Below, in pieces: positions 10,871-57,316 of a stretch of 64,000 nt of DNA; position 1 is the stretch's first letter, and each line of letters starts with the position of its first letter. The stretch is taken from contig JBFMCO010000032.1 in assembly GCA_040754495.1 (NCBI GenBank), positions 123 through 64,122 on the forward strand, given 5' to 3'. The notes beneath the pieces were generated by a model. That model was not told the DNA's origin. It was given only the letters and a program-made list of their open reading frames with translations, and did not search any database. This DNA is from Candidatus Micrarchaeota archaeon. Lineage in GTDB: Archaea > Micrarchaeota > Micrarchaeia > Anstonellales > Bilamarchaeaceae. The translations under genes and the position numbers were made by a program.

Positions 10871-10911
10871 GGTTTTGGGTTCCCGGTCACTGGTTTCGGG
10901 TTTTGGGTTTT
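10871..10911. repeat. heptamer-family repeat array immediately upstream of lipoprotein gene 10915
   Basis: GGTTTTG GGTTCCC GGTCACT GGTTTCG GGTTTTG GGTTTTG: six units of 7-nt period, ending 4 nt before the ATG. Confidence 0.6.
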
Positions 10912-10914
10912 GAA

Positions 10915-12703: not shown

Positions 12704-12715
12704 ATTGGTGAAGAT

Positions 12716-40300: not shown

Positions 40301-40741
40301 ATGCCGAATTCGACGACCAAGCCGCTCATCATCCCGCTTGTCATACTGTCGATAATCTATGCGGTTTCCGTCCTGTTCTTCCATTACGTCGAGGGCTGGA
40401 ATTTCCTCGACGCCGCCTATTACACCACGGTAACGCTGGCCACCGTAGGATATGGTGATTTCACCCCCAAATCCGACCTGGGCAAAGTCGGGACTATAAT
40501 CCTCATTTTCACGGGCGTATCCACCGCGCTTTATGTCATAACCCACCTTGGATTAATCCGGGAGAGGACAATCGACCCGCACGTCCAGCGCAGGCTGGAA
40601 GTGCTCCGCAACCTGACCGCGCTCCAGACCGGCGGCGTGAAGAAGGAGGAGCTGAAGAAGATACGGGAGAAGATAAACGCCAAGGACGAGCCTGCCCCGA
40701 AAGAGAGGGACGCGCGCTCGCAAGGGTTCGGTAAGCTATGA
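40301..40741 (+). CDS. two-TM potassium channel (KcsA-type pore, no RCK domain)
   Basis: 146-aa ORF with selectivity filter TLATVGYGDFTP flanked by two hydrophobic helices. Confidence 0.85.
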   Translation: MPNSTTKPLIIPLVILSIIYAVSVLFFHYVEGWNFLDAAYYTTVTLATVGYGDFTPKSDLGKVGTIILIFTGVSTALYVITHLGLIRERTIDPHVQRRLEVLRNLTALQTGGVKKEELKKIREKINAKDEPAPKERDARSQGFGKL

Positions 40742-41421
40742 GCCTCTATGGGGAGAAATTCCTCAGGAACCCGCTTTCGGAAAGGGAGCAGGCCAGGATA
40801 AGGAAGGCGCGCTTTGCAATCGTCGGCCTCGGCGGCACCGGCGGCTTCATGCTCGAGAACCTCCTGCGCATGGGTGCGGAGCGGCTTCTCGTCTTCGACC
40901 ACGACCGCTTCGAGCTCTCAAACTTCAACCGCCAGCCCCTGGCCACGGAGGAATTCCTGGACATGCCTAAGGTGCATGCGGCACTGGCGCGCGCGAAGGC
41001 CATAAACAACGGCATACGGCTCGAGACGCGCGAAAAATTCGACGAGAGCTCCAGCCTGCGCGGCGCGGACATCGTGCTTGACGGGACGGACAATATCTGC
41101 TCGAAGCTTCTCATGGCGCGCGCGGCGAGGAAAGCCAAGCTCCCCTACGTCTTCTCCTCGGCGCAGGGGAGCCGCGGCATCGTCAGCGTCTTCACGTCCT
41201 ACCGATTCGAGAAGGCTTTCCAGCTTCCGCCGGACACGGGCGCCCTAGAGGCTTACGGGCGCTGCTCGAGCATCATCTGCCCGGCCGCGTCCCTTGCCGG
41301 CACGCTTGCCGCCTCGCAGGCCGCGAGCGTCCTTCTAAAAAAGCCGTTCGTTAAGGCGCCGCAGGCGCTATTCTTCGACCTTTTCAGGAAGGACGTCTTC
41401 TGGAGGGCGAAGCTCGGATGA
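40738..41421 (+). CDS. ThiF/MoeB/HesA-family E1-like adenylyltransferase
   Basis: 227-aa ORF with a Rossmann motif (FAIVGLGGTGGFMLENLLRMG) and DHDRFELSNFNRQ. ATGA overlap with the channel gene. Confidence 0.8.
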   Translation: MSLYGEKFLRNPLSEREQARIRKARFAIVGLGGTGGFMLENLLRMGAERLLVFDHDRFELSNFNRQPLATEEFLDMPKVHAALARAKAINNGIRLETREKFDESSSLRGADIVLDGTDNICSKLLMARAARKAKLPYVFSSAQGSRGIVSVFTSYRFEKAFQLPPDTGALEAYGRCSSIICPAASLAGTLAASQAASVLLKKPFVKAPQALFFDLFRKDVFWRAKLG

Positions 41422-41699
41422 AATACTACGTGGTCGAGCCCTGCACGACTGCCGGAGGCATAGAGATAAAGCTCCAGGATAAGAGGATAGACCTGAAGAA
41501 GGCCGAGAAGGCGTTCTCCAGGCTGGGAGAAGTGGTGGGCAGCAGCGCGGTGGTCCTGCTCGTCCGGCTCGAAGGATGCTCCATAAGCGTTTATGGTAGC
41601 GGGCGCATGATGGTGAAGGGAAAAATATCGCAAAAAGAAGGGCAGAAGCTTGCGGACAGGCTGATTGAGGCCCTGGAAAAGGCGGGTGCCGTATCATGA
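41418..41699 (+). CDS. small protein with TBP-fold-like half-domain pattern
   Basis: 93-aa ORF with ATGA overlaps on both sides. CSISVYGSGRMMVKGKISQKEGQKLADRLIEALEKAG resembles the TBP-repeat pattern ..IFSSGK.V.TGAKS.ED...A...I...L. Confidence 0.55.
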   Translation: MKYYVVEPCTTAGGIEIKLQDKRIDLKKAEKAFSRLGEVVGSSAVVLLVRLEGCSISVYGSGRMMVKGKISQKEGQKLADRLIEALEKAGAVS

Positions 41700-42352
41700 A
41701 AATAGACCTCCACGTCCACACGAAATACTCCACAGACGCGCTCATCGAGCCGAAGGCCCTTGCCAAAAAATCCCGTGAGTGCAGAGTCATCCCGGCGATT
41801 ACCGAGCACAACAACATGGATTCGCACAGGGAGCTGCGCTCGCTGAAAACCGACTTCATACCTGGCGAGGAGATAAGGACCGACAGGGGCGACCTCATCG
41901 GCCTCTATCTTTCAGAGCCGATAGCCAAGAACACGCCCTTCATGGAGGCAATAGACAAAATCCATTCACAGAGCGGCCTCGCCTACCTCCCGCACATGTA
42001 CGACAAGTCGCGCAAGGGCGTCGTTCCTTCCAAGAGGGAGGCGCGGAAGCTCGACATAATCGAGGCCTTCAACGCGCGTTGCCCGCTGGAGTCGTTCAAT
42101 GCGAGGGCTGCGGCTTTCGCAGAAGAGCACAAGCTCCCCAAAGCCTGCGGGAGCGACTCTCATTTCCTGATGGAGTTCGGCCATACATATGCGGAGCTGC
42201 CCGACTTCGACCCCGGGAATCCGAAAGCCCTTATCAAGGCGCTCAAAACCGGGAACCCTAAACTCAGGACCCGCAAGGCCGCGCTTTATCTGCGGGGCAC
42301 GACCACGTTCGTGGCCCTCGGAAGAAAACTAATTCACATGCTGAAGTTTTAA
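41696..42352 (+). CDS. PHP-domain metal-dependent phosphoesterase
   Basis: 218-aa ORF with MKIDLHVHTKYSTDA at the N-terminus, later His/Asp motifs (ITEHN, LPHMYD, GSDSH). Confidence 0.8.
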   Translation: MKIDLHVHTKYSTDALIEPKALAKKSRECRVIPAITEHNNMDSHRELRSLKTDFIPGEEIRTDRGDLIGLYLSEPIAKNTPFMEAIDKIHSQSGLAYLPHMYDKSRKGVVPSKREARKLDIIEAFNARCPLESFNARAAAFAEEHKLPKACGSDSHFLMEFGHTYAELPDFDPGNPKALIKALKTGNPKLRTRKAALYLRGTTTFVALGRKLIHMLKF

Positions 42353-42379
42353 ATTTCCGCGCCGCGCATTCAGCCCGAT

Positions 42380-43090
42380 ATGGCCGAGGTAACGATTCTA
42401 GTCGCTCTTGTCGCCGGGCTTGTCTCCTTCCTCAGCCCCTGCGTCCTTCCGCTCGTTCCGGCCTACCTGACTTTCCTTGCAGGGACCGCAGTGCAGAAGG
42501 AATACTCCGCGACGCAGCGCGCCAGGATATTCCTCTCCAGCGCCTTCTTCGTCCTGGGGTTCTCCCTGGTCTTCTCGCTCCTCGGCGTGCTCCTGCAGGG
42601 CATCCTCAGGGGCGCAGCATACGGCATACAGACATACCTGGGCTATGTCGGCGGCCTCATGATAATCGTCTTCGGCCTGACGATGACCGGCCTCATACGA
42701 ATAGAGGCACTCGAGACCGAGCGGAGGCTCAGGCTGAAGCCCACGTCGGTGCCCTACCTGACCTCGTTCCTGTTCGGGGCGGCATTCGCGGTCGGCTGGA
42801 CGCCCTGCGTCGGCGCGGCTCTAGGCACGATACTCACGCTGGCAGCGACCGAGCCGGCCTCAGCGTTCCCCCTCCTGCTTTCATACTCGGCCGGCCTCGG
42901 CATCCCGTTCCTCCTGGCCGGCCTTTTCGTCTCGCAGGCTGCCGGCGCGATAAAGCTCATCGGCCCGTACCTGAAGTGGCTGAACGTCATATTCGGCATA
43001 ATCATCATCGCGCTCGGCATCCTCGTCTTCACCGGCTCGCTCCCGCTGATAGCGAACCTTGGCTTCCTGAACGACTTCCTGCTCCAGTGA
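42380..43090 (+). CDS. ccdA: cytochrome c biogenesis/thiol-disulfide transporter CcdA (DsbD family)
   Basis: 236-aa polytopic ORF with LSPCVLPLVPAYL and a second conserved Cys (GWTPCVG). Confidence 0.85.
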   Translation: MAEVTILVALVAGLVSFLSPCVLPLVPAYLTFLAGTAVQKEYSATQRARIFLSSAFFVLGFSLVFSLLGVLLQGILRGAAYGIQTYLGYVGGLMIIVFGLTMTGLIRIEALETERRLRLKPTSVPYLTSFLFGAAFAVGWTPCVGAALGTILTLAATEPASAFPLLLSYSAGLGIPFLLAGLFVSQAAGAIKLIGPYLKWLNVIFGIIIIALGILVFTGSLPLIANLGFLNDFLLQ

Positions 43091-43094
43091 TTTT

Positions 43095-44192
43095 ATGATA
43101 AAGGCCGAAAATCCCATCGCGCTCGCAATCGTGCTCTTCCTGATAGCCTCGGCAATCCTGCTGCTCCTGTCGTTGCGGCCGTCCGCGCTTCCGCCCGGGA
43201 GCGCCGATGCGGAAGGCCCTGCCAAATCCGGCCTTTACCAAAAGGCGCCTGAGCTCTCAGGCATCGAGGGCTATGTCAACGCGCCGGAAGGCTTCAGCCT
43301 GGCCGATGCAAAAGGCAAGGTCGTCCTGATAGACTTCTGGACCTATTCGTGCATCAACTGCATCAGGACGCTTCCGTATCTCACGGCATGGGACGAGAAA
43401 TACCGCGACAAGGGGCTGGTAATCGTCGGCGTCCACACGCCGGAGTTCGAGTTCGAGAAGGACTACCCGAACGTGTTGGCCGCGGCCGAAAAATTCGGCA
43501 TCAAGTACCCGGTCGTGCTTGACAACTCCTACTCGACGTGGCAGGCCTACGGCAACCACTTCTGGCCGCACAAATACCTCATCGATTCCGACGGCTTCAT
43601 ACGCTACGACCACATCGGCGAGGGCGGGTACGAGGAGACCGAGACGGAGATACAAAAGCTGCTTGCAGAGAGGGACGCGAAGGCAGAGATGGGCGGTCTG
43701 GTCTCGGAAAACATCACAGAGAGGACGCCGGCCGGCTTCACGACGCCGGAGATATACCTCGGGTACTCGTACGCGCTCCCGCGCGGGCAGGACATCGGCA
43801 ACATCGGCGGCCTCAGGCCCGGCGAGACTGCGGACTATGCGCTGCCCGCTTCGTTCCAGCCGCATGCAGCCTACCTTGAAGGGACATGGAAGAGCGGGCC
43901 CGAGTATGTGGAGCTTGCCTCGGACGAGGGGGTGGTCGTCCTCGTATACAGGGCCAAGAACGTGAACATCGTCGCAGAAGGCAACTCGACGATTACCATC
44001 ACGCTGGACGGCACGGTCCCGCAGGCCGAAGTCATCGGCTCGGACGGGATACTGGAGGGCGGCAGGGCGGAATTCAACGTAACGGACGAGCGGCTCTACG
44101 AAATCGTGGACGATGAGGGCTATTTCGAGAAGACTCTCGTGATGAATGTCCGCGGGAAGGGTTTCCGCCTCTACACGTTCACGTTCGGATAG
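43095..44192 (+). CDS. membrane-anchored thioredoxin-like (TlpA/ResA/DipZ-C-like) oxidoreductase
   Basis: 365-aa ORF with an N-terminal anchor, a redoxin domain carrying WTYSCINCIRTLP (CxxC), and an extra C-terminal beta-rich domain as in DipZ-type proteins. Confidence 0.8.
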   Translation: MIKAENPIALAIVLFLIASAILLLLSLRPSALPPGSADAEGPAKSGLYQKAPELSGIEGYVNAPEGFSLADAKGKVVLIDFWTYSCINCIRTLPYLTAWDEKYRDKGLVIVGVHTPEFEFEKDYPNVLAAAEKFGIKYPVVLDNSYSTWQAYGNHFWPHKYLIDSDGFIRYDHIGEGGYEETETEIQKLLAERDAKAEMGGLVSENITERTPAGFTTPEIYLGYSYALPRGQDIGNIGGLRPGETADYALPASFQPHAAYLEGTWKSGPEYVELASDEGVVVLVYRAKNVNIVAEGNSTITITLDGTVPQAEVIGSDGILEGGRAEFNVTDERLYEIVDDEGYFEKTLVMNVRGKGFRLYTFTFG

Positions 44193-44198
44193 CGCAAA

Positions 44199-44210
44199 CT
44201 ATTTAAGATT
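44199..44210 (+). promoter_or_regulatory. TATA-like box for 44230 gene
   Basis: CTATTTAAGATT is centred about 26 nt upstream of ATG 44230. Confidence 0.4.
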
Positions 44211-44229
44211 AGGATAACCATCTCCTCCG

Positions 44230-45294
44230 ATGGCAGAATCCTTCGTTGGCATAGAGATAGCCGTGTTCGTGGTCACGGCCTCCATCGCGCTTGCCGGCAT
44301 CCTCTGGGGCGTTGGCAGGGCATTCGGCTGGAAGAAGCTCGAGCTGTTCGGCGTGGAGGAACTCATGCAATCCATCATAAACGCGGCCATCATCGGCTCT
44401 TTTGCTGCCGTCATAGAGCTTGTCGGTCTGGTCAGCTCCGAGGTCGTCGGGGAATCATGCAAGGAAGGCAACGTCATCGCCCAGCTCACATGCACCATGC
44501 AGGGCCTCAACGACTCGCTGTTCGTCATGCTCCAGGAGCTCCTCCGGACGCTCAACCTCATCGGCTACTACCAGGGGCTCTCGCTCGACTTCGGGCAGTT
44601 CGCGGTGGCCCCGTTCGCGAACCTCGGCCCGGTTTCTGACAGCCTCTCCCTCCAGCTCCTTTCCCTGAACTGGCTCATGATACTCGTCGAGCTGAACACC
44701 CAGATTGCGCTTTTCATCTCGCAGAACGCGCTCGGGCTGCTGTTCCCGGTCGGCCTCGTCCTGCGCACGCTGTTCGCCACGCGCAAGGTCGGCGGGTTCC
44801 TGATAGCCCTCGCCATCGGCCTCTACATATTCTACCCGACGTTCATACTCGTGTTCCCAAACCCCCAGCCGGACGTGGAGCGGGCCGCGCTCACGATGGG
44901 CAACTTCACGAACAACACCTTCTACGCGACCGCGCCGCTCATAGACCTGAACGACAACTACGCCATCGCCGCGAAGCTGGACATCCTGAGCATGCGCTGC
45001 AACCCCCACGCCTTCAACATAACCAACGTGACCAACGTGACGAACACCACGACCGCGTGCGACGATTTCCTGCAGGCACAGAACATGACCTCGAACGTGA
45101 CGCAGAACATGACCTTCGACTTCACCGGCGACATCACCGTGGCCGTGCAGAGCAACAGCAACGCCATCTCGAAGACGTCGCTCTACGCGGTCGTCGCGCC
45201 CATATTCTCTCTCGTGATATCCATCGTTTTCGTGAAGGAGCTGGCCAACATCCTCGGCAGCGAAATAGGCCTCCGGACGATAGCATCCATCTGA
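44230..45294 (+). CDS. polytopic membrane protein (possible VirB6/CedA-like) with sequon-dense loop
   Basis: 354-aa ORF with multiple hydrophobic helices and the extracellular loop NITNVTNVTNTTTAC...NMTSNVTQNMTF. Confidence 0.65.
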   Translation: MAESFVGIEIAVFVVTASIALAGILWGVGRAFGWKKLELFGVEELMQSIINAAIIGSFAAVIELVGLVSSEVVGESCKEGNVIAQLTCTMQGLNDSLFVMLQELLRTLNLIGYYQGLSLDFGQFAVAPFANLGPVSDSLSLQLLSLNWLMILVELNTQIALFISQNALGLLFPVGLVLRTLFATRKVGGFLIALAIGLYIFYPTFILVFPNPQPDVERAALTMGNFTNNTFYATAPLIDLNDNYAIAAKLDILSMRCNPHAFNITNVTNVTNTTTACDDFLQAQNMTSNVTQNMTFDFTGDITVAVQSNSNAISKTSLYAVVAPIFSLVISIVFVKELANILGSEIGLRTIASI

Positions 45295-45325
45295 ATTTTA
45301 AAGACGACAACACAAAGTGAGGTAT

Positions 45326-46111
45326 ATGTTCATGAACAGGGCCGTCACCGCGGCCTCCCTCCTGGGAGGCATCCTGGCCGTCGTCATATCGCTCGTTTAC
45401 GGCAACCCCATACTACCGGTCATCGCGGCCGTGTTCTTCTTCATGACGCTGCTGCTCTGGAAATACGGCTACCTGCTAATCCCGTTCTTCACCCGGGCCA
45501 CCAACATCGTGGAGGTGCACAGCGGCGGGTACGAAGTTCCGCCCACCAGGGACTACATAATCAAGAAGACCGAGGGCGGCTACTACGCGACCAGGTTCCT
45601 GGAAGTGCGCTTCTACGAGAGCTCGATGGACAAGAGCCAGGACGAGAAGAGGACGATGTTCGATTCCTTCGAGAAGGCTGTGAGCTCGCTCAAGTACATC
45701 GTCCGCGTTACGCTCATGATAAGCACCCTCGACCTGTCCAGGCATATAGAGGAGATAAAGACCAAGCGCGGGGTCGTCGAGGCGAAGAAGGCCAAGGAGG
45801 CCAAGCTCGCGGCGGACGAGAGCATGAGGATGGACCGCGAACTGGCCTACTGGAACCGCCTCTTGGACCGCATCACGCAGGGCGAGAGGCCCGTGGAGAT
45901 AGTGGCTTTCGCATCGACGACCGCATTCGGGCTTACGCGCGACGAGGCCCTGGGGCGCGTGAGCAGGCAGGCCAAGGAACTGAAGACCATCCTTTCCAGC
46001 TCGCTGGGGTGCGACATACGCGACCTCTCGGACATAGAGATGCTCAAATGCTTCGAGTGGGAGTATTTCTTCCCGACCACGCAGGAAGAGATAAAGGACG
46101 CGCTATTTTGA
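45326..46111 (+). CDS. two-TM protein with VirB4/TrbE N-terminal-domain-like region
   Basis: ORF opens at GTG 45317, with ATGs at 45326 and 45332 following GAGGT. Two N-terminal TM helices are followed by ...YYATRFLEVRFYESSMDKSQDEKRTMFDSFEKAVSSLKYIVRVTLMISTLD, a pattern like VirB3-VirB4 N-terminal regions. Confidence 0.6.
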   Translation: MFMNRAVTAASLLGGILAVVISLVYGNPILPVIAAVFFFMTLLLWKYGYLLIPFFTRATNIVEVHSGGYEVPPTRDYIIKKTEGGYYATRFLEVRFYESSMDKSQDEKRTMFDSFEKAVSSLKYIVRVTLMISTLDLSRHIEEIKTKRGVVEAKKAKEAKLAADESMRMDRELAYWNRLLDRITQGERPVEIVAFASTTAFGLTRDEALGRVSRQAKELKTILSSSLGCDIRDLSDIEMLKCFEWEYFFPTTQEEIKDALF

Positions 46112-46129
46112 GGGGATTGCGATTCGTGT

Positions 46130-48913
46130 TCAGCCCAGGGCATTCCTCACAATCCTGGCCGGCACTCTGGTCAGATGGCCGGGACGCACAAAGATTCTCT
46201 CCCTGAATGACTTGTCAAGCAGCTTGACTGAAAGCTCGCCAAGTTCAGGATTTTCTAGGACCGGTTTTTCGGAGGACCAGACTTCGACTGTTCTCGGCGT
46301 TTTCCGGTCCATGTCATAGCCGACGACATGCCGCTCGTCATACCCCGAATCGGCAAGGACCGAAAGCATGAATGCTTCATCCAGACCCGCGGTCCTTTTC
46401 TGGAAAGCCGATGAAAGCTCCAGAAGCGCATAAAGCGGCGTGTCTATCTCCCCCATCGAAGGGACGAAACCCCCGTTCCCACCAGGAGGTTTCGCAAGGA
46501 CGAATCCATCCAGCTCTTTCCCTACTGCCGGCCGCGTTTTAACGAACACCATCAGGTTAGTGGCCTGCTCAATTTTTTGTTTGAGCCGCACCGGCTCTTC
46601 CACGCCGAGTCCGGCAAGCTCTTCCAGGGTCAAGGTGCTTGTATATAGCGTCCCTTCGGCAATGATCTCGAATCCGAAATACTGCACCTGCGTCTTGAAG
46701 TGGGCAGTTCTTGAATATTCGACCGGCAGGGAAACAAGCACCGTGCCGGTTTCCACCAGAATCCTGTTCGCTTCGTTGAACACATTTGCCAGCGCTTCGG
46801 TTGTGAGGCGGTGGCAGAATTGTATCATGGCGATGGCATCGAATTCCCCTTCCACCCTGAAACCGGCCTTTTTCACCTCGTGCGCCTTGATATACCTGTG
46901 CACTAGCTGGATGCCCAGCATATCCGCAGCCTTTCCCAGGGGTTCAGGGTAGAATGACATCTCAAGCGTTTTTCTGTTACCAAGAAGCTCCCTGAACTGC
47001 CTCAGGATGGCGAGGGCTTCCCTGAAGACCCTTGTGTTGGCTAGCCTCCTTTTGATACTTTCAATGAGCGCGGGGGAGGGGTTCTCCTGCTCTATCTCAA
47101 GTGCGTTTATGCGATCTTCGGTAAGGCCTCTTTTAGAGTATAAGGCCCTTCTGAGCACCGGGTTTTCCTTCAGGCGCTCCGAAATTGTCCCCGGGCTATA
47201 TGCAAGGGGTCCTCCGTTGGCGTTGCTGAGATTTTTTGCACTGGGAATCCCATCGAAAGATGTGATTGCTTCGAGGATGTGCCTGTCAAGGCGCCGGTCT
47301 ATGGCCGCCCTTGCGTTTCCTTTCGTGCTTATCCAATGTTTGGAGGTAAACTCCCTGTCGAAGACTGCCCTGTCGCATGATTCAACGAACGCTATGCCCC
47401 TCTCTTCCAATGCCTGCTGAAGCCCTGGGTTTTCCTTCAGGCGCTTTGAAATTATCTCCGGGCCATATGCAAGCGGCCCTTCGCCCTCTTTGCCGAGATT
47501 TCCTGCAGCGGGAATCCCATCGAAAGATGTGATTGCTTCGAGGATGTGCCTGTCAAGGCGCCGGTCTATGGCCGCACTTGCCGTTCCTGTCGTACTTGTC
47601 CACTGAGCGGAGGTAAGTTCCCTGTCGAAAATATCCCTGTTGCAGGTTTCAACAAATATTACGCCTTTTTCTTCCAGAGTCTTTCGGAGCCCCGGATTTT
47701 TCTTTAGCCGGTGAGAGATTAGTTTCAGGCTATATGCAAGCGGCCCTTCGCCCTCTTTGCCGAGATTTCCTGCAGCGGGAATCCCATCGAAAGATGTGAT
47801 TGCTTCGAGGATGTGCCTGTCAAGGCGCTTGTCTATCGCCACCCTTGCCTTCCTTATCGCGCCTGTCCACTGTTTGGAGGTAATATTCCTGTCGAAGACC
47901 GCCCTATCGCAGGTTTCAACGTATGCCGCGCCTTTTTCTTCCAATGCCTTCTGGAGTTCCGGGTTTTTCTTCAGATACCTTGAGATTGTTGTTGCGCTGT
48001 ATTCAAGCGGCCCTCCATTGTGTCTGCTGAGATTGTGGGGGTTGGGAATCCCGTCATATAATTCAATTGCCTCGGGGATATGGCTCTCAAGGCGCCGGTC
48101 TATGGCAGCGTTTATTTTCCCTGTTGCTCTGGTCCACCGTCCAGAGATAAATTCCCTGTCGAAGACCGCCCTCTCGCAGGTTTCAACGAATGCAATGCCT
48201 TTCTCTTCCAACGCTTTCTTGAGTTCCGGGTTTTCCTTCAGGCGTCCCAAGATTGTCACCGGATCATATGCAAGCGGCCCTCCGCTGGTTTTGCTGAGGT
48301 TTGTTGCATTCGGAATCCCATTGTATGATTCAATTGCCTCGAGGATATGGCTGTCAAGGCGCCGGTCTATGGCAATCCTTACTTTTTTTCGCGGTTGTTT
48401 TAACCTTCCAGAGATAAATTCCCTGTCGAAGACCGCCCTCTCGCAGGTTTCAACGAACGCAATGCCTTTCTCTTCCAACGCCTCCCGGAGCAGTGGATTT
48501 TTCAATAACCGGTCCCCGATTAGCTTAGTACTATATTCGAGCGGCCCCTTGCCCTCTTTGCTGAGATTTTTAACACTTGGAATCCCATCGTATGATTCGA
48601 TTGCCTCGAGGATGTGCCTGTCAAGGCGCAAGTCTATGGCACCCCTAATCCTCCCAGACGCGTTTACCCATCGATGAGAGGTAATTTCACTGTCGAAGAC
48701 CGCCCTATCGCAGGCTTCAACGAACGAGATGCCCTTTTCTTCCAATGCCTTCTGAAGCCCCGGATTTTCCTTCAGGCGCTCCGAGATAATGTGATGGCCA
48801 CACGCCATCGGTCCTCCGCCATCTTTGCTGAGAGTATGAGCGCTGGGGATTCCGTTGCATGAGCGGATATACTGAAGTATCTCATTATCTATCTCGGAAT
48901 AGGTTTTCCCCAT
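46130..48913 (-). CDS. repeat protein: about 6.7 tandem 89-aa modules plus a roughly 330-aa C-terminal domain (weak methyltransferase-fold-like pattern)
   Basis: 927-aa ORF. The repeated module is IDRRLDRHILEAI.S.DGIP...NL.K...GPL.Y....I..RLK.NP.L..ALEEKGIAFVETC.RAVFDREF.S..W. The C-terminal FDAIAMIQFCHRL...NRILVETGTVLVSLP weakly recalls class I MTases. Confidence 0.75.
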   Translation of the reverse strand: MGKTYSEIDNEILQYIRSCNGIPSAHTLSKDGGGPMACGHHIISERLKENPGLQKALEEKGISFVEACDRAVFDSEITSHRWVNASGRIRGAIDLRLDRHILEAIESYDGIPSVKNLSKEGKGPLEYSTKLIGDRLLKNPLLREALEEKGIAFVETCERAVFDREFISGRLKQPRKKVRIAIDRRLDSHILEAIESYNGIPNATNLSKTSGGPLAYDPVTILGRLKENPELKKALEEKGIAFVETCERAVFDREFISGRWTRATGKINAAIDRRLESHIPEAIELYDGIPNPHNLSRHNGGPLEYSATTISRYLKKNPELQKALEEKGAAYVETCDRAVFDRNITSKQWTGAIRKARVAIDKRLDRHILEAITSFDGIPAAGNLGKEGEGPLAYSLKLISHRLKKNPGLRKTLEEKGVIFVETCNRDIFDRELTSAQWTSTTGTASAAIDRRLDRHILEAITSFDGIPAAGNLGKEGEGPLAYGPEIISKRLKENPGLQQALEERGIAFVESCDRAVFDREFTSKHWISTKGNARAAIDRRLDRHILEAITSFDGIPSAKNLSNANGGPLAYSPGTISERLKENPVLRRALYSKRGLTEDRINALEIEQENPSPALIESIKRRLANTRVFREALAILRQFRELLGNRKTLEMSFYPEPLGKAADMLGIQLVHRYIKAHEVKKAGFRVEGEFDAIAMIQFCHRLTTEALANVFNEANRILVETGTVLVSLPVEYSRTAHFKTQVQYFGFEIIAEGTLYTSTLTLEELAGLGVEEPVRLKQKIEQATNLMVFVKTRPAVGKELDGFVLAKPPGGNGGFVPSMGEIDTPLYALLELSSAFQKRTAGLDEAFMLSVLADSGYDERHVVGYDMDRKTPRTVEVWSSEKPVLENPELGELSVKLLDKSFRERIFVRPGHLTRVPARIVRNALG
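47126..48892. repeat. coding tandem repeat, period 267 bp, about 6.7 copies
   Basis: The landmark GGGAATCCC recurs at 47243, 47510 and 47777, exactly 267 bp apart. A 97-nt stretch is identical between two adjacent copies (about 47465-47561 and 47732-47828). Confidence 0.85.
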
Positions 48914-48965
48914 TTTATTCGTTATAATATATGTAAGAAAAGGTTATAAACGGGCCAGTTAGCGA

Positions 48966-49140
48966 AAAAACCGGGACCGGAAACCGGGAACCCGAGACTG
49001 CAGCCTGGAAACAGGAATCCGGATGCCGGTATTCCAGAACCCCAAACGGGAAACCAAGCTTCCAAGACCGGAAACCATACGGCTGCTACCGCAAGTTTCC
49101 CGGTTCCTCCCGGAACCGAGAACCGGGAACTGGGAACCAC
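48966..49140. repeat. largest array of the 7-nt-period repeat family (SGAAACC orientation on + strand)
   Basis: CCGGGAC CGGAAAC CGGGAAC CCGAGAC ... GACCGGAAACC ... GGAACCG AGAACCG GGAACTG GGAACCA. There is a short inverted segment GTTTCCCGGTTCC. The array is intergenic, between divergent genes. Confidence 0.75.
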
Positions 49141-49265
49141 CGACGCCAGGACGTTATTTCCGGAGCATAACGTTTATATACCGCCAACGAGATACTTACT
49201 CTCGACATGCCTCATGAAGTTTTGATGAAACTTTTATCTGTCGTTTCATCGGAGGAAAAGTCTCA

Positions 49266-50840
49266 ATGAAGCCATCATACATGCTCTCCAAGGAGATTGC
49301 GCGCAAGATGATTCTCGTGCACCCTCCTGAGCCGAGGAAGGAGCTCCTGCTCTCGCTTCCGTCGCAGGGGGTGTACATCGGCAAGACCAGGTTCCTGCGC
49401 ACGCCGGTCTTCTGGGACCCGAGCAAGCTCATCAATCCGCACCTCGCCATAATAGGCATAACCGGCTCGGGCAAATCCTACACAGTGAAGACGTTCCTCA
49501 CGAGGGCCTCCCTCATCTGGGACACGAACGCCATCATCCTGGACTGGGTGGGCGAGTACAAGGAGTGGGTGACACAGGCCGGGGGCCGCGTCATAGACCT
49601 GTCCAAGGAGAAGCTGAACATACTCGACCTTGCGGGCCTTCCCAAGCGGAGCAGGATAAAGCAGATAATCTCGGCGCTCGACATCCTCCTCGACCTGAAA
49701 AGCTACCCTAACGAGAGGGACGAGATAGAGGAAGCCCTCGAATACGTCTACTACAGGTCCGGAAGCCAGAAACCGACCCTGAAGGAGCAGGTCAAGGCCA
49801 TGAACCTGGAGAAGGCGCGGGCGCAGAGGAAGCTCGGAAAGCAGGAGGTCGAGGAGGCCCTGGAGGAGCTCTGCTATGACGGGAAATGCGAGAGGCCGAC
49901 GCTCGCGCATGTCGTCCATGTGCTCGAGAGGAGCAACAAGAGGAAGGCCGCCCGCCTGCTCAAGCGCTTCACCGCAGAGGGCACGGACTTCTTCGCCGGC
50001 TCATCGACGCTGGATATCGGGAAGCTGACCACCAGCGGCCTCGTCTGCATCGACCTGCACGGCCTGCCGAGCGAGGAGATAAGGAGCCTTGCAGGCCTCA
50101 CTATACTCCAGTACATCAAGGAGCTGATGCGCGCCGAGGGCATGCAGAAGGACAACAAGCACGTCCGCCTCTTCGTGGTGCTGGACGAGGCGTGGAAAAT
50201 CGCGCAGGACGAGCGAAGCGACGTCATAACCATAGTCCGCGAGGGCCGCAAGTATAATTTTTCCCTCGTCATCGCGACGCAGAACCCGAGCGACATGCAC
50301 AAGACGATATTCAGCAACATCGGCACGGTGTTCGTCCTAAGGCTGATACTCAAGGAATACCGGGACTACGTCCGCAACTCCATCGGCTACTCCGACTTCA
50401 TAGACGGCGAGATTTCCAAGTTCGGCGTCGGAGACGCGGCCGTGAACATGATTTTCGCGGAGAGGCAGTCGCGTGTCATGACCTTCCTCATGGAAAAAAT
50501 TGACGGCGAGGAGCCTCTCCTCATATACAAGATAAGAGGTGGGGAGATGATAGTGGAAATCGAGCGCGAGCAGTTCGTCAGGATGCTCTACGAAATCGGC
50601 CTGAACGAGAGCCAGCTCAACCTCATCAAGGGCGAGTTCGAGAAGGGCGACGGCCTCCTCGACGGGGAGCAGCTCGTCGCGGTCCTGGAGAAGTTCGGAT
50701 ACTCCAAGCCCTCCATAATCTCGTTCCTGAGGCAGCTCGGCATTGACGAGAAGAACCTCATCCGCGTGTTCTCGCTTGTCCGGATGAGGAAGGCAACGAA
50801 GGGCGTGGTCAACGTGGTCCTCGAGGACGGACACGTCTGA
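49266..50840 (+). CDS. VirB4/TrbE/HerA-superfamily ATPase (C-terminal ATPase module type)
   Basis: 524-aa ORF with Walker A (IIGITGSGKSYTVK), Walker B (RLFVVLDEAWKIA), and REGRKYNFSLVIATQNPSDM, typical of the VirB4/HerA-FtsK clade. GGAGG sits upstream of the ATG. Confidence 0.8.
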   Translation: MKPSYMLSKEIARKMILVHPPEPRKELLLSLPSQGVYIGKTRFLRTPVFWDPSKLINPHLAIIGITGSGKSYTVKTFLTRASLIWDTNAIILDWVGEYKEWVTQAGGRVIDLSKEKLNILDLAGLPKRSRIKQIISALDILLDLKSYPNERDEIEEALEYVYYRSGSQKPTLKEQVKAMNLEKARAQRKLGKQEVEEALEELCYDGKCERPTLAHVVHVLERSNKRKAARLLKRFTAEGTDFFAGSSTLDIGKLTTSGLVCIDLHGLPSEEIRSLAGLTILQYIKELMRAEGMQKDNKHVRLFVVLDEAWKIAQDERSDVITIVREGRKYNFSLVIATQNPSDMHKTIFSNIGTVFVLRLILKEYRDYVRNSIGYSDFIDGEISKFGVGDAAVNMIFAERQSRVMTFLMEKIDGEEPLLIYKIRGGEMIVEIEREQFVRMLYEIGLNESQLNLIKGEFEKGDGLLDGEQLVAVLEKFGYSKPSIISFLRQLGIDEKNLIRVFSLVRMRKATKGVVNVVLEDGHV

Positions 50841-50857
50841 TAAGGGGGAAAACTCAT

Positions 50858-51562
50858 ATGGCGGAAGAGACGATCACAGTTCCGGCGGCGCAGAAGAAGC
50901 CCTTGAAGGGCCTGGCCTCGCTTCTCTCGGGCCTCGGCTTCACGAGGATACAGTACGGGAAGGGAACGCTCTCTGTGGAGAAGATAAAGGGGACCGACCT
51001 GCAGGGCAAGCCGTACCTGGAGTACCGGGTCGAGTTCAGGCAGGATTCGGTCGTCTTCCTCTACAGCTTCTCGGCCAAGAGGAGCCGCATCGCGAGGCTG
51101 CTGGATTTGATGCCGACGTTCCTCAACATCCTCCAGGTGGCGGAGGACTACTACGACGTGCGCCCGACCGGCATATTCACCCACATCAACGCCCTGCTCT
51201 CCGAGACCTCGAAGATAATAGACCGGGACGCGCTGGAATTCTCGACGCAGCTCTCCGAGCTGCAGGCGCGCTACAACGACATGAGCACCAAATACGACGA
51301 CCTGGTCCGCTCCGGGGAGACCAACACCCGCCTCCTGCTCGAGTGCGAGAGGAAGAGGGACGAGGTTCAGAAGAAGCTCGCCCAGCTTTCCGGCATGGGC
51401 GACGATTTGCTCAAGGAGACGCTCTACAACTGGATAAAGCTCCACGGCGGAACGATTGACGTGCGCGAGTTCGCGAAGGCGCATTCCGTCGCCGTGACGC
51501 GGGCCGAGGACGGCCTGAACATGCTCATCAAGGAAGGATACATCAGGAGGCGCTTCGAATGA
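50858..51562 (+). CDS. hypothetical coiled-coil protein with C-terminal wHTH-like region
   Basis: 234-aa ORF starting 18 nt after the ATPase stop. Central heptad-rich segment (LSELQARYNDMSTKYDDL...KRDEVQKKLAQL). The C-terminus (IDVREFAKAHSVAVTRAEDGLNMLIKEGYIRR) is wHTH-like. Confidence 0.6.
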   Translation: MAEETITVPAAQKKPLKGLASLLSGLGFTRIQYGKGTLSVEKIKGTDLQGKPYLEYRVEFRQDSVVFLYSFSAKRSRIARLLDLMPTFLNILQVAEDYYDVRPTGIFTHINALLSETSKIIDRDALEFSTQLSELQARYNDMSTKYDDLVRSGETNTRLLLECERKRDEVQKKLAQLSGMGDDLLKETLYNWIKLHGGTIDVREFAKAHSVAVTRAEDGLNMLIKEGYIRRRFE

Positions 51563-51822
51563 GCAGGCGCAGAAGAAGGGGCGGAAACGGAGGTCCGGGC
51601 GCGGGGGTCCAGATGGCAGGAAAATCCGGGCCGGAGGCCGGAAGCCGGAGACGGGATGCCGCAGAAGAGCCGCAGATGAGCCAGTACATCTTCACCTTCG
51701 AGCTCATCCGCCACTATCCGACGGTGCGCTCGTTCCTGGTGAAGCAGCCGCTCAAGCGCTCGTTCTCCGATACCTTCTCAGAGCTCCTTGGCGGGAACAA
51801 GAAAGGCATTTATAGGCTTTAG
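51559..51822 (+). CDS. small basic hypothetical protein
   Basis: 87-aa ORF with an ATGA overlap with the upstream gene and an Arg/Gly-rich N-terminus. Confidence 0.35.
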   Translation: MSRRRRRGGNGGPGAGVQMAGKSGPEAGSRRRDAAEEPQMSQYIFTFELIRHYPTVRSFLVKQPLKRSFSDTFSELLGGNKKGIYRL

Positions 51823-51848
51823 CCCCCTCTTTTCTCCAGGGTTTCCTT

Positions 51849-53150
51849 ATGAAAGTGCTGCTTGTCGGGAACGGTGCCAGGGAGCATGCCATAGCCGAGC
51901 ACCTGGCACGGGATTGCGAGCTATATGCGCTTATGTCCAAGAAGAACCCGGCCATAGCCCAGCTCTCGAAAGAGCACTGGCTCTGCGACATCGAGGACGC
52001 GGAGGCGGTATCGAAGGCCATTTCCGGGCGCGGGTTCGACCTCGGTTTCGCGAGCCCGGATGCCGTGCTCGCCGCAGGGGTGAGCGACGTCCTCGAGAAG
52101 GCGGGCATGCTCGTCGCCTCCCCGCTGAAGGCGGCGGCCCGGATTGAGTGGGACAAGTCCTTCATGCGGAATCTCCTGGAGCGGCACAGGATAAAGGGGC
52201 AGCCGCGGCACGCGGTCGTAACGGATTCCGGCAATGCCCGCCGCGCGATATCGGATTTCGGCCAGGTCGCGGTCAAGCCGCTCGGCCTCACGGGAGGAAA
52301 AGGCGTCAAGGTGAGCGGAGACCACTTCAATCACATAGACGAGAAGGTGGAATACGCGGAGAGCCTCATAAGGAAGGACGGAAAGGTCCTAATCGAGGAG
52401 AAGCTGGTCGGCGAGGAATTCACGCTCCAGGGATTCTCGGACGGCTCCCGCATAGCGGCGATGCCTCCCGTGCAGGACCACAAGCGCGCGTATGCAGGAG
52501 ATTTGGGGCCCAACACGGGCGGCATGGGCAGCTACTCATCGGGCGAGCGCCTCCCCTTCATGGAAAGCGGCGAGCTGGAGGAGGCGAAGAAAATCCTCCA
52601 GGGCGTGATACACGCGATGAAAAAGGAAGGCGTCCCCTTCAGGGGCGTGCTTTACGGCCAGTTCATCCTGACCGCGGGCGGCGTGAAGGTAATAGAGTTC
52701 AACGCCCGCTTCGGGGACCCGGAGGCCATGAACGTGCTCGCCCTCCTGCAGGACTCCCTCTCCAACGTCTTCCTGTCGATGGCCGAGGGCGACCTCCGCC
52801 CCCCGCGCTTCCTTGACGACTCGACCGTAGTCAAGTATCTCGTGCCGGAGGGCTATCCGGACAAGCCGGTGAAAGACGCGCCGGTGGAGATAGACGCCCG
52901 GGGCATAGAAGACAGCGGCGCGAAGCTATACTACGCCTCAGTGTACGAAAAGGGCGGCAGGATACTCACGACCGGCTCCCGCGCTTTCGGCGTTCTCGGC
53001 AGGGCAGGGTCTCTCGAGGAAGCCGAAAGGGTGGCAGAAGAAGGGTGCAGGCACATCCGCGGGCCGGTCTGGCACCGCAGTGACATCGGCAAAAAGTCGC
53101 TCCTTGAGGCCAAGGTCGCACGCATGCGCTCCCTGCGCGGGAAACCATGA
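51849..53150 (+). CDS. purD: phosphoribosylamine-glycine ligase
   Basis: 433-aa ORF with MKVLLVGNGAREHAIA and ATP-grasp motifs (GKGV, EFNARFGDPE). Confidence 0.95.
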   Translation: MKVLLVGNGAREHAIAEHLARDCELYALMSKKNPAIAQLSKEHWLCDIEDAEAVSKAISGRGFDLGFASPDAVLAAGVSDVLEKAGMLVASPLKAAARIEWDKSFMRNLLERHRIKGQPRHAVVTDSGNARRAISDFGQVAVKPLGLTGGKGVKVSGDHFNHIDEKVEYAESLIRKDGKVLIEEKLVGEEFTLQGFSDGSRIAAMPPVQDHKRAYAGDLGPNTGGMGSYSSGERLPFMESGELEEAKKILQGVIHAMKKEGVPFRGVLYGQFILTAGGVKVIEFNARFGDPEAMNVLALLQDSLSNVFLSMAEGDLRPPRFLDDSTVVKYLVPEGYPDKPVKDAPVEIDARGIEDSGAKLYYASVYEKGGRILTTGSRAFGVLGRAGSLEEAERVAEEGCRHIRGPVWHRSDIGKKSLLEAKVARMRSLRGKP

Positions 53151-54355
53151 AGGCGGCACTCCTGCTCCTGCTGCTGCTTCCGTTCGCGCATCCTGCCAGC
53201 TTCGGCTATTCCAGGCTCATCGTCGAGAGGTCCTGGGACGTGGAAAGCGGCGCCCCATACGAATTCAGCGGCGCCCTGGTGGTCAACGACAGCAACCAGC
53301 GCGTAGTCTCGATAACGACCGAGCCGCAGATGGACGTCTTCACGGACGAGAACGGCACCGTGCGCCTGGGGTACAATGGCAACGGGAGCGCAAGTCTCAG
53401 GGCGATTGCCATAGTGGACGTGGATTACGATACGCAGATATCCTCCGACCCGGCGCTGCCACGCAAGGGCATCCCGGGCACGAACCTGACCGCCGCGGAC
53501 GAAGACATCTCGTTCCAGGCCCGGAGGCTCGCGCGGGAGGAGTCCGCGCTGCTGACCGTCCGGGACCTCGTGAACTGGGTGCACGACAATGTCGAGTACG
53601 ACATAAGCTACTGGGGCAAGGTGAAATCGGCAAGGGAGGTGTATGCCGAGAGGCGCGGCGTGTGCGTGGAATACGCCCACCTGCTGATATCCATGGCGCG
53701 CTCGCTCGGCTTCCAGACGCGATATGTGAGCGGCTACGTCATGGGGGCGTCCTGGCAGCCGCACGCCTGGGCCGAGATACTGGTCCCGGGATACGGGTGG
53801 CTCCCGGCGGACGCCACCTTCGGCCAGGTGGGAATACTCGACACGAGCCACGTGGCCATACAGAAGGGGGACGACCAGTCGCAGGCCTACGACCTCCTCC
53901 TCTCGCGCGACAAGGACGCGAACATATCGGCTACAGACAGCGTCAGCGTCAGTTTCGACGACGCGGACCCTAAGGGGGTGGCGGTTGCGCTGGACGTGGA
54001 CATCGACACCTACGTGGCCGAGACGACTATCGACAACTCCCGCGACGAATACGTGTTCGGCTCGTATTCGCTTCTTGCCCCGGAAGGCTTCGGCGGGCAG
54101 GAGCCGTCCGTCGTCCTCCTGCGCCCGTCTGAGAAACTCCGCCTCTACCGGGGCCTCAACTACTCCCTTTTCGAGGAGGGATTCCTTTACGACGTGCCGG
54201 TCACGGCATCATTCAACGACGCGGTGGACGGGGAGACGGTAAAGCCGGGCCTCGAGCGCCTGGAAGGCGGCAGGGCGCCGCAGGGCCTCTGCATCCCGGC
54301 ATCCCTGCTCGTAATACTCATCGCCCTCATCGCTCTCGCGGGCAGGAAAATATAA
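53147..54355 (+). CDS. secreted, C-terminally anchored transglutaminase-like cysteine protease-fold protein
   Basis: 402-aa ORF with a signal peptide, RGVCVEYAHLLISMARSLG...HAWAEILVPGYGWLPADAT (Cys-His-Asp core) and a C-terminal TM helix. ATGA overlap with purD. Confidence 0.8.
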   Translation: MKAALLLLLLLPFAHPASFGYSRLIVERSWDVESGAPYEFSGALVVNDSNQRVVSITTEPQMDVFTDENGTVRLGYNGNGSASLRAIAIVDVDYDTQISSDPALPRKGIPGTNLTAADEDISFQARRLAREESALLTVRDLVNWVHDNVEYDISYWGKVKSAREVYAERRGVCVEYAHLLISMARSLGFQTRYVSGYVMGASWQPHAWAEILVPGYGWLPADATFGQVGILDTSHVAIQKGDDQSQAYDLLLSRDKDANISATDSVSVSFDDADPKGVAVALDVDIDTYVAETTIDNSRDEYVFGSYSLLAPEGFGGQEPSVVLLRPSEKLRLYRGLNYSLFEEGFLYDVPVTASFNDAVDGETVKPGLERLEGGRAPQGLCIPASLLVILIALIALAGRKI

Positions 54356-54377
54356 ACACTTCCGGAGATATCAGACC

Positions 54378-55448: not shown

Positions 55449-55460
55449 TTGGTGGTGCTT

Positions 55461-56240: not shown

Positions 56241-56335
56241 GCGCATCCGGTCTCCCGAGGGAAGATCGCTTCCCTGGGCACCGGGAACGGGCCGCCGTTC
56301 TCGATTGCCTGCATCCGTTCCCGGCACATCTAAAC

Positions 56336-56362
56336 GCAAAACCCACAACCGGAAACCAGACA
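56336..56362. repeat. heptamer-family repeat copy between convergent genes
   Basis: AAACGCA AAACCCA CAACCGG AAACCAG. It is flanked by short hairpins (GGGAAG-ATCG-CTTCCC at 56259-56274; GCGGGC-TGGGT-GCCCGC). Confidence 0.45.
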
Positions 56363-56400
56363 ATGCGGGCTGGGTGCCCGCTGCCGGTAACCGGCTGCCC

Positions 56401-57255: not shown

Positions 57256-57316
57256 GAAGATTGTATGGGAGGGGCACGAATTAATATCTTATCTGGATAA
57301 TCCCAGCGGTGATTGG

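Follow-up and report, generated by a model that had tools for sequence, protein, structure and literature searches.

The window, which is the whole 64,000-nucleotide stretch of Candidatus Micrarchaeota DNA that was analysed, carries on its minus strand (46130..48913) a real gene encoding an uncharacterised archaeal protein of 927 amino acids, laid out as six full and one truncated 89-aa modules followed by a 333-aa C-terminal region. Each module is, by a sequence link that runs transitively through relatives, a divergent AsnC/Lrp-type (HTH_24) helix-turn-helix (HTH) extended by two helices, and the core of the C-terminal region has, with certainty as modelled, a class I methyltransferase fold. 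The best explanation, in which we place moderate confidence, would be a cytoplasmic accessory protein that couples a multivalent nucleic-acid-binding HTH array to a non-canonical methyltransferase-like effector. A search of the full-text literature returned nothing on a tandem HTH-module plus methyltransferase-fold architecture, and this combination of an HTH array with a methyltransferase fold whose SAM loop is replaced appears to be undescribed, both of its building blocks being familiar.

The gene and its tandem array

The gene is an open reading frame with an ATG start and a stop codon at 46130-46132. Its neighbours from 40738 to 57300 all lie on the opposite strand, and its GC is 0.524 versus 0.595 for the window, with a GC3 of 0.59 versus 0.81-0.89 in every neighbour and housekeeping gene tested. 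An earlier note on this DNA had reported the reversed orientation and the lower GC, and both observations hold, as does its description of a real 927-aa gene with about 6.7 modules and a 267-bp period, on which open reading frame, TRF and HMM segmentation agree. TRF reports one array at 47147-48784 (period 267, 6.1 copies, 75% matches, score 1369); the GIP motif recurs at residues 21, 110, 199, 288, 377, 466 and 555, a spacing of exactly 89 aa; and GGGAATCCC stands at the three positions already noticed, 267 bp apart (47243, 47510 and 47777), as well as at a fourth, 48044, that had been overlooked. HMM segmentation divides residues 3-594 into six full modules and a seventh cut to about 58 aa, giving 6.65 modules as assembled. 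Following the protein along the minus strand, these are module 1 (aa 3-91, 48641..48907; the protein N terminus falls at module position ~5), module 2 (aa 92-180, 48374..48640), module 3 (aa 181-269, 48107..48373; the copy used for the AF2 model), module 4 (aa 270-358, 47840..48106), module 5 (aa 359-447, 47573..47839), module 6 (aa 448-536, 47306..47572) and the truncated module 7 (aa 537-594, 47132..47305), which keeps the HTH half alone.

Whole modules share 64-82% of their DNA and 51-74% of their protein sequence in pairwise comparison, so that the near-identity of adjacent copies described earlier is confined to a patch: 97 nt at 47732-47828 (module 5) are identical to 47465-47561 (module 6), as had been seen, and the final 52 nt of this run recur in module 7 at 47243-47294. 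Between modules, synonymous divergence is about 0.9 and dN/dS 0.35, which argues that the repeat is a selected coding array and not a product of chance. Amid such divergence, a perfect run of 97 nt requires recent gene conversion; of the two origins first proposed, recent duplication or gene conversion, it is a gene-conversion patch that the run supports. The dN/dS of about 0.9 in a variable 'patch' of the module is circular, the patch having been picked after its variability was seen. Modules resemble one another more within a protein than between proteins, and module 7 is the sole one with clear orthologues in other proteins.

Identity of the modules and of the C-terminal domain

Searched against Pfam, the window protein has no match at E<=0.1, and NCBIfam and PDB sequences gave nothing usable. 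The earlier impression that the module is unlike known families therefore stands for the window sequence in these three databases but does not stand for the module as such, which belongs, in derived form, to the HTH superfamily. The connection is made through relatives: an HMM built from the window subfamily alone matches residues 506-580 of the relative P0014 (2.4e-14), and the same residues match Pfam HTH_24 (6.6e-13; 48.5 bits, cut-off 21.9), with HTH_AsnC-type and HTH_IclR also above cut-off on them. A second relative, P0025, matches HTH_AsnC-type at 31.5 bits (cut-off 27), two of the 42 subfamily modules match HTH_24 alone, weakly (best E=0.0057), and the family profile aligns with residues 6-41 of Pyrococcus furiosus LrpA (1i1g) at E=0.024. 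The module profile found nothing significant in the PDB.

The AF2 model of module 3 (pLDDT 91) is all-alpha, with five helices at module positions 2-16, 23-26, 38-47, 49-65 and 68-77; it contains the three-helix HTH core and has no beta-hairpin wing. Together with the relatives' modules that pass the HTH_24 and HTH_AsnC-type thresholds, this helical model supports the small HTH-like unit that had been suspected from the sequence. A Foldseek search of the model against PDB and BFVD found nothing significant (PDB best E=2, TM 0.43; BFVD E=0.7). The highest-ranking entries repeatedly include HTH domains of phage small terminases, at non-significant scores.

The first ~45 residues of the module (D-x-x-I-L-x-x-I ... 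G-I-P ... L-S ... T-I-x-x-R-L) resemble the Lrp/AsnC HTH (PF13412, PF13404; LrpA 1i1g). Unlike Lrp/AsnC proteins, the module protein lacks the RAM/ACT ligand domain and the beta-wing; the turn of every module is longer by four residues (GGPL), and two further post-HTH helices and a basic linker take the place of the usual wing. The domain occurs 2-10 times per chain here, whereas Lrp/AsnC proteins assemble as dimers or octamers, and the window's own modules fall below the Pfam thresholds. Sequence entropy within the module peaks at positions 24, 29, 38, 39 and 42, the most variable residues lying at the end of helix 2 and in the first turns of the recognition helix, which bears positions 38, 39 and 42. 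Arg44, Lys46/47 and Asn48 are kept, R44 and N48 being invariant or nearly so. The module envelopes are near neutral or acidic (net charge -5 to +4) and the array pI is 8.85, values that do not describe a strongly basic DNA binder, and the four-residue insertion and the loss of the wing could mark the end of DNA binding.

The C-terminal region begins on the minus strand with a helical cap or linker (aa 595-647, 46973..47131) carrying the family-wide motif GLTEDRINALE ... FRE, in which the R is near-invariant and the E invariant. It continues with the class I (Rossmann) methyltransferase-fold core (aa 648-792, 46538..46972), delineated by AF2, Foldseek and conserved columns, and ends with a beta-rich subdomain (aa 827-927, 46133..46435) that AF2 and the alignment indicate is kept across the family. 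The AF2 model of the region has a pLDDT of 92 and a pTM of 0.75, and Foldseek against the PDB returned 504 matches at E<=1e-3, the best 50 of these 504 all being of class I methyltransferase fold at probability 1.00. What had been described as a faint class I methyltransferase-like pattern is thus, by AF2 and Foldseek, a genuine class I fold.

The motifs of this fold are unusual. Motif I reads S-F-Y-P-E-P without GxGxG (E-M-S-F-Y-P-E-P-L in the window; family consensus L-E-V-S-L-Y-P-x-P-L, whose Y is found in every member and whose S and P are found in at least 90%), and no family member has a glycine-rich motif I. An H-R pair follows strand 4; across the columns of the C-terminal domain Y69 is invariant, and S67/P70 and H115/R116 are near-invariant. 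The core has no obvious acidic residue after strand 2. One relative, P0047, matches Methyltransf_11 over profile positions 54-95 only (26.2 bits, cut-off 21.2); the window protein has no methyltransferase match in Pfam or NCBIfam, nor do the C-terminal and family profiles in the PDB. The non-canonical motif I makes methyl transfer from SAM doubtful, and catalysis is, judged from these sequence motifs, unsupported. Known fusion regulators join a single ArsR/SmtB-type wHTH to Methyltransf_11/25 with a canonical GxGxG SAM loop. The domain order is the same here, an HTH part preceding a class I methyltransferase fold, but the window protein differs in its array of seven modules, its S-x-Y-P-x-P loop and the beta-rich subdomain added at its C terminus.

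Family, promoter and presence/absence at the locus

Six homologue clusters at 44-56% identity are the close relatives of the protein, and the wider family has 49 representatives (about 50 clusters among 1.84 billion representatives). Complete members have 2-10 modules of 84-99 aa followed by the same C-terminal domain; one homologue (L004, in a genome MAG) has 1.6 modules, and two tandem paralogues in one genome have 6 and 3. Copy number, whose variation among strains the earlier note had proposed to survey, ranges from 1.6 to 10 modules among homologues. All four of the named clusters are annotated as 'hypothetical protein' from Candidatus Micrarchaeota, and the family is apparently confined to Micrarchaeota-type DPANN archaea. 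IMG/VR contained no relative, and a viral origin is accordingly not backed.

The gene has its own promoter and leader (48914..48960, minus strand), kept in the window and in five homologous loci of 40-57% GC, with a TATA box, TTTATAA, at 48944-48950 (plus-strand coordinates) and a conserved element, ACATATATTATAACGA, at 48919-34, ending 5 nt ahead of the ATG. Gene, promoter and ~135 bp of heptamer repeats form a presence/absence segment of ~3 kb (46112..49100). It is missing in two relatives of 96-97% identity (X1 and L013) and present in one of 79% (L009), which is collinear with the window over 45425-47128. The X1 contig runs from 46101 straight to 49157, L013 has a 155-nt spacer at the site of the gene, and read coverage of 46106-49147 is zero in the runs that hold relatives. 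The indel boundaries have no transposon-like ends in the form of terminal inverted repeats; near the two junctions there is only a 6-bp microhomology, AGGACG, which does not reproduce the exact junction, and a proposed X1 junction restoring an ATGA stop/start overlap proved wrong on manual check. As to the direction of the indel, presence of the gene at the same site in the 79%-identical relative points toward loss in L013 and X1; GC3 points toward recent gain.

The gene lies within a heptamer-repeat spacer, splitting an otherwise contiguous cluster of membrane-protein and HerA-VirB4-like ATPase genes. Homologues stand in differing genomic contexts, with no neighbour kept across the family. 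Only L005 and L007 have neighbours in common (a 145/175-aa protein, two unknown proteins and ERCC4), which looks like synteny of related genomes and not a family-wide link. The foreign codon composition and the absence in close relatives suggest a recently acquired, dispensable gene, probably acquired horizontally; with the varied contexts, the absence in relatives of 96-97% identity and the GC3 of 0.59 mark it as an accessory gene and not a T4SS component.

Possible functions and their rivals

In the explanation we favour, the HTH modules would sit side by side on nucleic acid, most probably double-stranded DNA, and the array would provide multivalent, extended recognition while positioning the C-terminal domain, whose part would be that of an effector, a ligand sensor or an oligomerisation unit. 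On this reading the arrays evolve by gene conversion and unequal recombination, which gives the 1.6-10 modules found in different proteins. Against a DNA-binding array, the sequence evidence suggests an HTH link that is only transitive, and there are the neutral or acidic envelopes and the absence of a significant structural neighbour.

The earlier note had placed the gene inside a putative T4SS-like cluster, next to the largest heptamer array. A role in this adjacent T4SS/Ced-like cluster of membrane proteins and a HerA/VirB4/CedB-like ATPase, as a component or as a regulator that binds the heptamer array, would fit the 352-bp divergent intergenic region common to the gene and the ATPase gene, the densest GGRAACY cluster of the window lying in that region (7/49 matches) and the ~135 bp of extra heptamers in the gene-specific segment. 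Yet L013 and X1 keep the whole cluster and a heptamer array without the gene, further heptamer arrays persist in gene-less strains, the homologous loci examined have neither a VirB4/HerA-like ATPase neighbour nor heptamers upstream, and GC3 sets the gene apart from the cluster as foreign. On these observations the gene is not part of the cluster and no functional tie to the heptamer array emerges, the array is unsupported as the protein's target, and we regard this alternative as largely refuted and highly improbable. It is also unlikely that the gene is real but its assembled module number wrong through short-read repeat collapse or expansion. The identical runs of 97 and 52 nt among modules 5-7 and the apparent origin of the sequence in a metagenome-assembled contig of 66.9 kb would invite such an error, but DNA divergence between modules is 18-36% and no identical run exceeds 97 nt, so that most module junctions are unique for reads of 100-150 nt; the array stays in frame at a spacing of exactly 267 bp, and the same design, with 1.6-10 modules, recurs in independently assembled homologues.

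Winged-helix and HTH domains serve as protein-interaction domains in cullins, ESCRT-II and RNA polymerase III C82/C34, and the array could likewise be a protein-protein scaffold, its methyltransferase-like domain acting on, or regulated by, a recruited protein. The lost beta-wing and enlarged turn, the roughly neutral or acidic envelopes and the lack of a significant structural match to a DNA-bound HTH are consistent with this; R44, K46 and K47 of the recognition helix, however, are conserved as inherited from AsnC-type HTHs, variability sits at the base-reading positions of HTH proteins, the linkers are basic and no conserved neighbour points to a partner, and we consider a scaffold rather unlikely. 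Were the protein an RNA-binding, RNA-modifying enzyme, with modules that grip structured RNA and an unusual yet active methyltransferase, the predicted fold, itself certain, would be accounted for, and S67, Y69, P70, H115, R116, R45 and E46 lie in motifs that line the canonical class I active site, which suggests that a functional site is kept. But motif I is glycine-rich in no member, AsnC-type HTHs bind DNA, and a gene that is dispensable in near-identical strains, patchy and variable in module number is unlike core RNA-modification enzymes, all of which makes such an enzyme quite improbable.

Returning to the multivalent HTH array as the favoured reading, its closest parallels in overall design are systems that string recognition units along one chain. 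As in TAL effectors (3ugm), head-to-tail modules are homogenised by recombination, copy number varies among homologues and variation is limited to a few positions per module; the motif L-W-x-A-Y-Y-x-K-x-G-L-T-x-D-Q-A-v-E-L-A, found once per protein at the junction of array and C-terminal region, resembles the TALE repeat LLPVLCQAHGLTPDQVVAIA. The TALE unit, however, is a two-helix hairpin of 33-35 aa, whereas the module has 89 aa and an HTH core; a 33-35-aa repeat with a repeat-variable di-residue was not found, the period being 89 aa. An apparent homology to TAL effectors (E=5.7e-15) was rejected as an artefact, since it adds up 16 matches, each insignificant by itself, to a single short motif of ~20 aa. 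Like Myb/SANT R1R2R3 proteins, the array has several HTH units per chain that could occupy successive major grooves, but Myb repeats are ~52 aa long, occur in 1-4 copies, belong to eukaryotes and are not joined to any methyltransferase fold; Myb/SANT and the modules showed no detected similarity in sequence. A far-reaching version of DNA recognition, which we regard as a long shot, is a natural 'programmable' system built from HTH modules in place of TALE or zinc-finger units. In such a system a short DNA step would be read by each 89-aa module via the hypervariable positions 24, 29, 38, 39 and 42, the target's length and sequence would follow from how many modules there are and in what order, and within-array recombination would give rise to new specificities; the effector so delivered would be the degenerate methyltransferase-fold domain, and the 3- and 6-module paralogues and the 1.6-10 range would correspond to different 'addresses'.

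A recombining tandem array of as many as ten HTH-containing modules that runs into a methyltransferase fold with a replaced SAM loop is apparently undescribed, and it comes from a tiny family in Micrarchaeota-type DPANN archaea, organisms whose lineage-specific genes mostly lack an assigned function. The presence/absence polymorphism in the heptamer-repeat spacer illustrates concretely how a gene is gained or lost in these reduced genomes. Should the array bind DNA, it would represent a new route to extended recognition surfaces and a possible scaffold on which to engineer DNA-binding proteins; otherwise it would clearly exemplify the re-use of HTH modules as a structural repeat.

Anatomy and identity of the module array

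The repeat gene (46130-48913, minus strand) starts with ATG and encodes 927 aa, and both the ORF call and Tandem Repeats Finder, which detects one array only, spanning 47147-48784 (period 267 bp, 6.1 copies, 75% matches, score 1369), bear out the minus-strand frame and the period described in an earlier note. GIP tripeptides stand at residues 21, 110, 199, 288, 377, 466 and 555, a spacing of exactly 89, and an HMM built from the repeats segments residues 3-594 into six complete modules plus one more, the seventh, ending after about 58 residues, in agreement with the roughly 6.7 modules of 89 aa first proposed. The landmark GGGAATCCC is found at the three sites recorded previously at 267-bp spacing (47243, 47510 and 47777) and at a fourth, 48044, which had been overlooked. 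The description of adjacent copies as near-identical holds for a 97-nt patch, in which two neighbouring copies are indeed identical (47732-47828 and 47465-47561) and whose final 52 nt occur a third time at 47243-47294, but not for whole modules, whose identity is 64-82% at the DNA level and 51-74% at the protein level. The patch indicates recent gene conversion. Synonymous divergence between modules is about 0.9 and dN/dS is 0.35 (0.26 in the fold core), so the array is a selected coding repeat, under purifying selection. Antisense ORFs on the plus strand (47757-48677 and 47007-47420) are by-products of the periodicity, homologues existing for the minus-strand frame only.

The window protein has no match in Pfam, NCBIfam or PDB sequences. 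Of the two tools that the earlier note advised for one module, AlphaFold2 gave a confident helical model from an alignment of 42 modules (pLDDT 91; helices at 2-16, 23-26, 38-47, 49-65 and 68-77, with no beta-hairpin), and Foldseek found no structure in PDB or BFVD that resembles it significantly; its best matches, all weak, were to HTH domains (phage small terminases, Zur, HmgR and AdeR). Modules of relatives are more telling. A module of the homologue P0014 matches Pfam HTH_24 at 6.6e-13 (48.5 bits, cut-off 21.9) and also exceeds the cut-offs for HTH_AsnC-type and HTH_IclR, another homologue (P0025) exceeds the Pfam cut-off for HTH_AsnC-type with 31.5 bits, and an HMM from the window subfamily alone matches the same P0014 residues, 506-580, at 2.4e-14. 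Residues 6-41 of P. furiosus LrpA align with the family profile. Because relatives' modules pass Pfam and the subfamily HMM reaches the same P0014 residues, the module is, on sequence grounds, a derived AsnC/Lrp-type HTH in which two helices and a basic linker take the place of the wing. Pfam misses the modules of the window protein because of a four-residue insertion (GGPL) in the turn, which the window subfamily shows in the alignment with P0014. The initial guess of a small HTH-like unit was thus right; the impression of a module unlike any known family is true of its own sequence and not of its derivation. Column entropy peaks at module positions 24, 29, 38, 39 and 42, that is, at the end of helix 2 and in the first turns of the recognition helix, whereas R44 and N48 are invariant or nearly so and K46 and K47 are mostly retained; this pattern, with the variable set chosen post hoc, would be that expected of an HTH that reads bases through contacts particular to each module.

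A methyltransferase fold with a replaced loop

In the AlphaFold2 model of the C-terminal region (46-sequence alignment; pLDDT 92, pTM 0.75), aa 587-644 form a helical cap and aa 648-792 an alpha/beta core; a disordered loop, which is short, leads on to a beta-rich subdomain (aa 827-927). Foldseek returned 504 PDB matches at E<=1e-3, and the best 50 of these 504 are class I methyltransferase-fold proteins, including BioC, TleD, YcgJ, RebM and nucleomethylin. Given these matches and a Methyltransf_11 match above the Pfam cut-off in one relative, the modelled domain certainly has a class I methyltransferase fold, and the faint pattern noted earlier proves genuine. Its SAM-binding loop is non-canonical: the window protein has E-M-S-F-Y-P-E-P-L at the GxGxG site, with Tyr invariant across the family and Ser and Pro present in at least 90% of members, and the family alignment has no conserved acidic residue after strand 2 of the core. 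The domain is probably not a standard SAM enzyme. A functional pocket may nevertheless be retained, as further conserved residues (R45 and E46 of the cap; H115 and R116, which follow strand 4) map to sequence motifs that line the active site of canonical enzymes.

Where array and cap meet, at aa 587-612 (47078-47155), lies a junction motif with the family consensus L-W-x-A-Y-Y-x-K-x-G-L-T-x-D-Q-A-v-E-L-A. It resembles the TAL-effector repeat LLPVLCQAHGLTPDQVVAIA; this likeness is probably chance or convergence, since the score against a TAL effector in PDB (E=5.7e-15) is inflated by summing 16 weak matches.

An accessory gene and its surroundings

On one side (44230-46111) of the repeat gene, plus-strand genes encode a multi-pass membrane protein of 354 aa and a protein of 264 aa; on the other (49266-51562) lie those for a HerA/VirB4/CedB-like ATPase (DUF87, AAA_10) and a coiled-coil protein of 234 aa. 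This small cluster, bordered by housekeeping genes and conserved in the MAG contig L013, resembles a minimal archaeal system of the Ced/T4SS-like or HerA-membrane kind. In L013 the flanks are 96-97% identical and a 261-aa gene, a 155-nt spacer and the ATPase gene follow one another without the repeat gene; a groundwater-metagenome strain contig (X1) joins 46101 to 49157, with zero coverage of 46106-49147. The polymorphic segment of about 3 kb (46112-49100, compared with L013:2416-2505 and X1) contains the gene, its promoter and extra heptamers, has no terminal inverted repeats in these comparisons and has its breakpoints within a heptamer-repeat spacer. GC3 of the gene is 0.59, against 0.81-0.89 for every neighbour and housekeeping gene tested, confirming the lower GC noticed at the outset, and GC3 of homologues tends to fall below that of their hosts. 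Given its absence from X1 and L013 and its GC3, the repeat gene is accessory, compositionally foreign and dispensable, and is no T4SS component. A 79%-identical relative (L009) carries it in the same convergent position, which favours loss in the close relatives, whereas base composition favours recent gain.

The gene is preceded by a promoter of its own: a TATA box, together with the element ACATATATTATAACGA, stands immediately before the ATG (48914-48960), and both are kept in similar form in six loci (the window, L001, L003, L004, L005 and L007; GC 40-57%). The conserved placement suggests a short or absent leader, and the region is possibly an operator. Just upstream of the ATPase start, 49198-49264 (67 nt) contains a TATA-like CTTTTATC and GGAGG, gene-less relatives having only GCGAGAGGACG(A) there; this may be a promoter and RBS gained in replacement once the cluster had been split. 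The groundwater runs contain a second variant, which departs after 46076 (TGACGGCGCAGGAGATGGAAGAGAGCGTGA...) and so belongs to a further lineage, whose junction beyond the 264-aa gene differs.

The densest GGRAACY cluster of the window lies in the spacer beside the repeat gene. Seven-base periodicity is specifically enriched, with 31 windows at lag 7; lag 9 has 12, lag 12 has 2 and lags 5, 6, 8, 10 and 11 have none. Arrays of the GGRAACC / GTTTCCN type lie at 48965-49145, 9532-9580, 9927-9958, 10877-10913, 51629-51663 and 61058-61103. A T4SS- or heptamer-linked role, as the position within the cluster and next to this array had implied, is very improbable. On the T4SS side, the gene is missing from L013 and X1 and homologues elsewhere have different contexts (HEPN/MNT, CBS and LeuRS; ERCC4; a ribosomal/SecY operon; TCA-cycle genes; HEAT-repeat paralogues). 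As for the heptamers, L013 retains a shorter array, (GTTTTGN)x4 then (GGAAACN)x5, without the gene, other arrays persist in gene-less strains with heptamer-sized indels, and the homologous loci examined have none upstream; the arrays are therefore a trait of this lineage's spacers and no partner of the repeat protein. As the gene apparently sits inside one, they may be recombination-prone sites.

Family, proposed function and novelty

Only six clusters in a large protein collection are related to the window protein (44-56% identity), with 8.6, 6.6, 5.6, 4.6 and 4.6 modules and, behind a different N-terminus, 3.3. A C-terminal profile search of 1.84 billion representatives yielded 49 proteins. 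In the family, all four source-named clusters are 'hypothetical protein [Candidatus Micrarchaeota archaeon]'. Every complete member has 2-10 modules of 84-99 aa ahead of the C-terminal domain (214 modules in 53 proteins overall). Among 185,579 species-representative genomes the sole match is a MAG labelled Candidatus ainarchaeum sp., whose homologue has 484 aa and 1.6 modules, so that the survey of copy-number variation once suggested spans 1.6-10 modules. The window, which encodes gyrase, GatE, AglB, PolB, Pus10, GGGP synthase and CCA-adding enzyme, is archaeal chromosome. In four of seven close-subfamily proteins, the window's included, internal modules are closer to each other than to those of other proteins, and orthology between proteins is confined to the last, truncated module; the internal likeness reflects either independent expansion or concerted evolution. 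Two paralogues stand next to each other in one genome (L014:10001-14248), a 6-module protein of 811 aa and a 3-module protein of 553 aa; their C-terminal domains are very similar, and they are inserted among TCA-cycle genes.

The HTH module is also used in differently built proteins. P0007 (913 aa) has it after an unrelated repeat-rich N-terminus and no methyltransferase domain, and P0053 (1249 aa) combines it with a second repeat kind and a long extra C-terminus. P0005 (L005:2816-5604, L006, L011) is broken into 750-aa and 160-aa ORFs, tblastn spanning the entire C-terminal domain; the frameshift, present in both JGI and ENA contigs, reflects a pseudogene or an assembly error. L005:75-2556 and L007:7231-7758, 11666-13587 share four neighbours in differing arrangements at 48-58% identity (145/175-aa, 184/196-aa and 233/226-aa proteins and an ERCC4 nuclease), probably synteny of related genomes.

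We lean slightly towards a mechanism in which the modules would bind side by side to nucleic acid and hold the C-terminal domain in position. An array serving as a protein-interaction scaffold is unlikely, and an RNA-modifying enzyme is less likely still; an error in the assembled module number is likewise improbable. The parts of the protein are of known kinds, and a full-text literature search found no account of an HTH-module array joined to a methyltransferase-fold domain. The novelty lies in how they are combined: as many as 10 HTH modules, in an array that recombines, precede a methyltransferase fold whose SAM loop has been replaced, in a family apparently restricted to a DPANN lineage.
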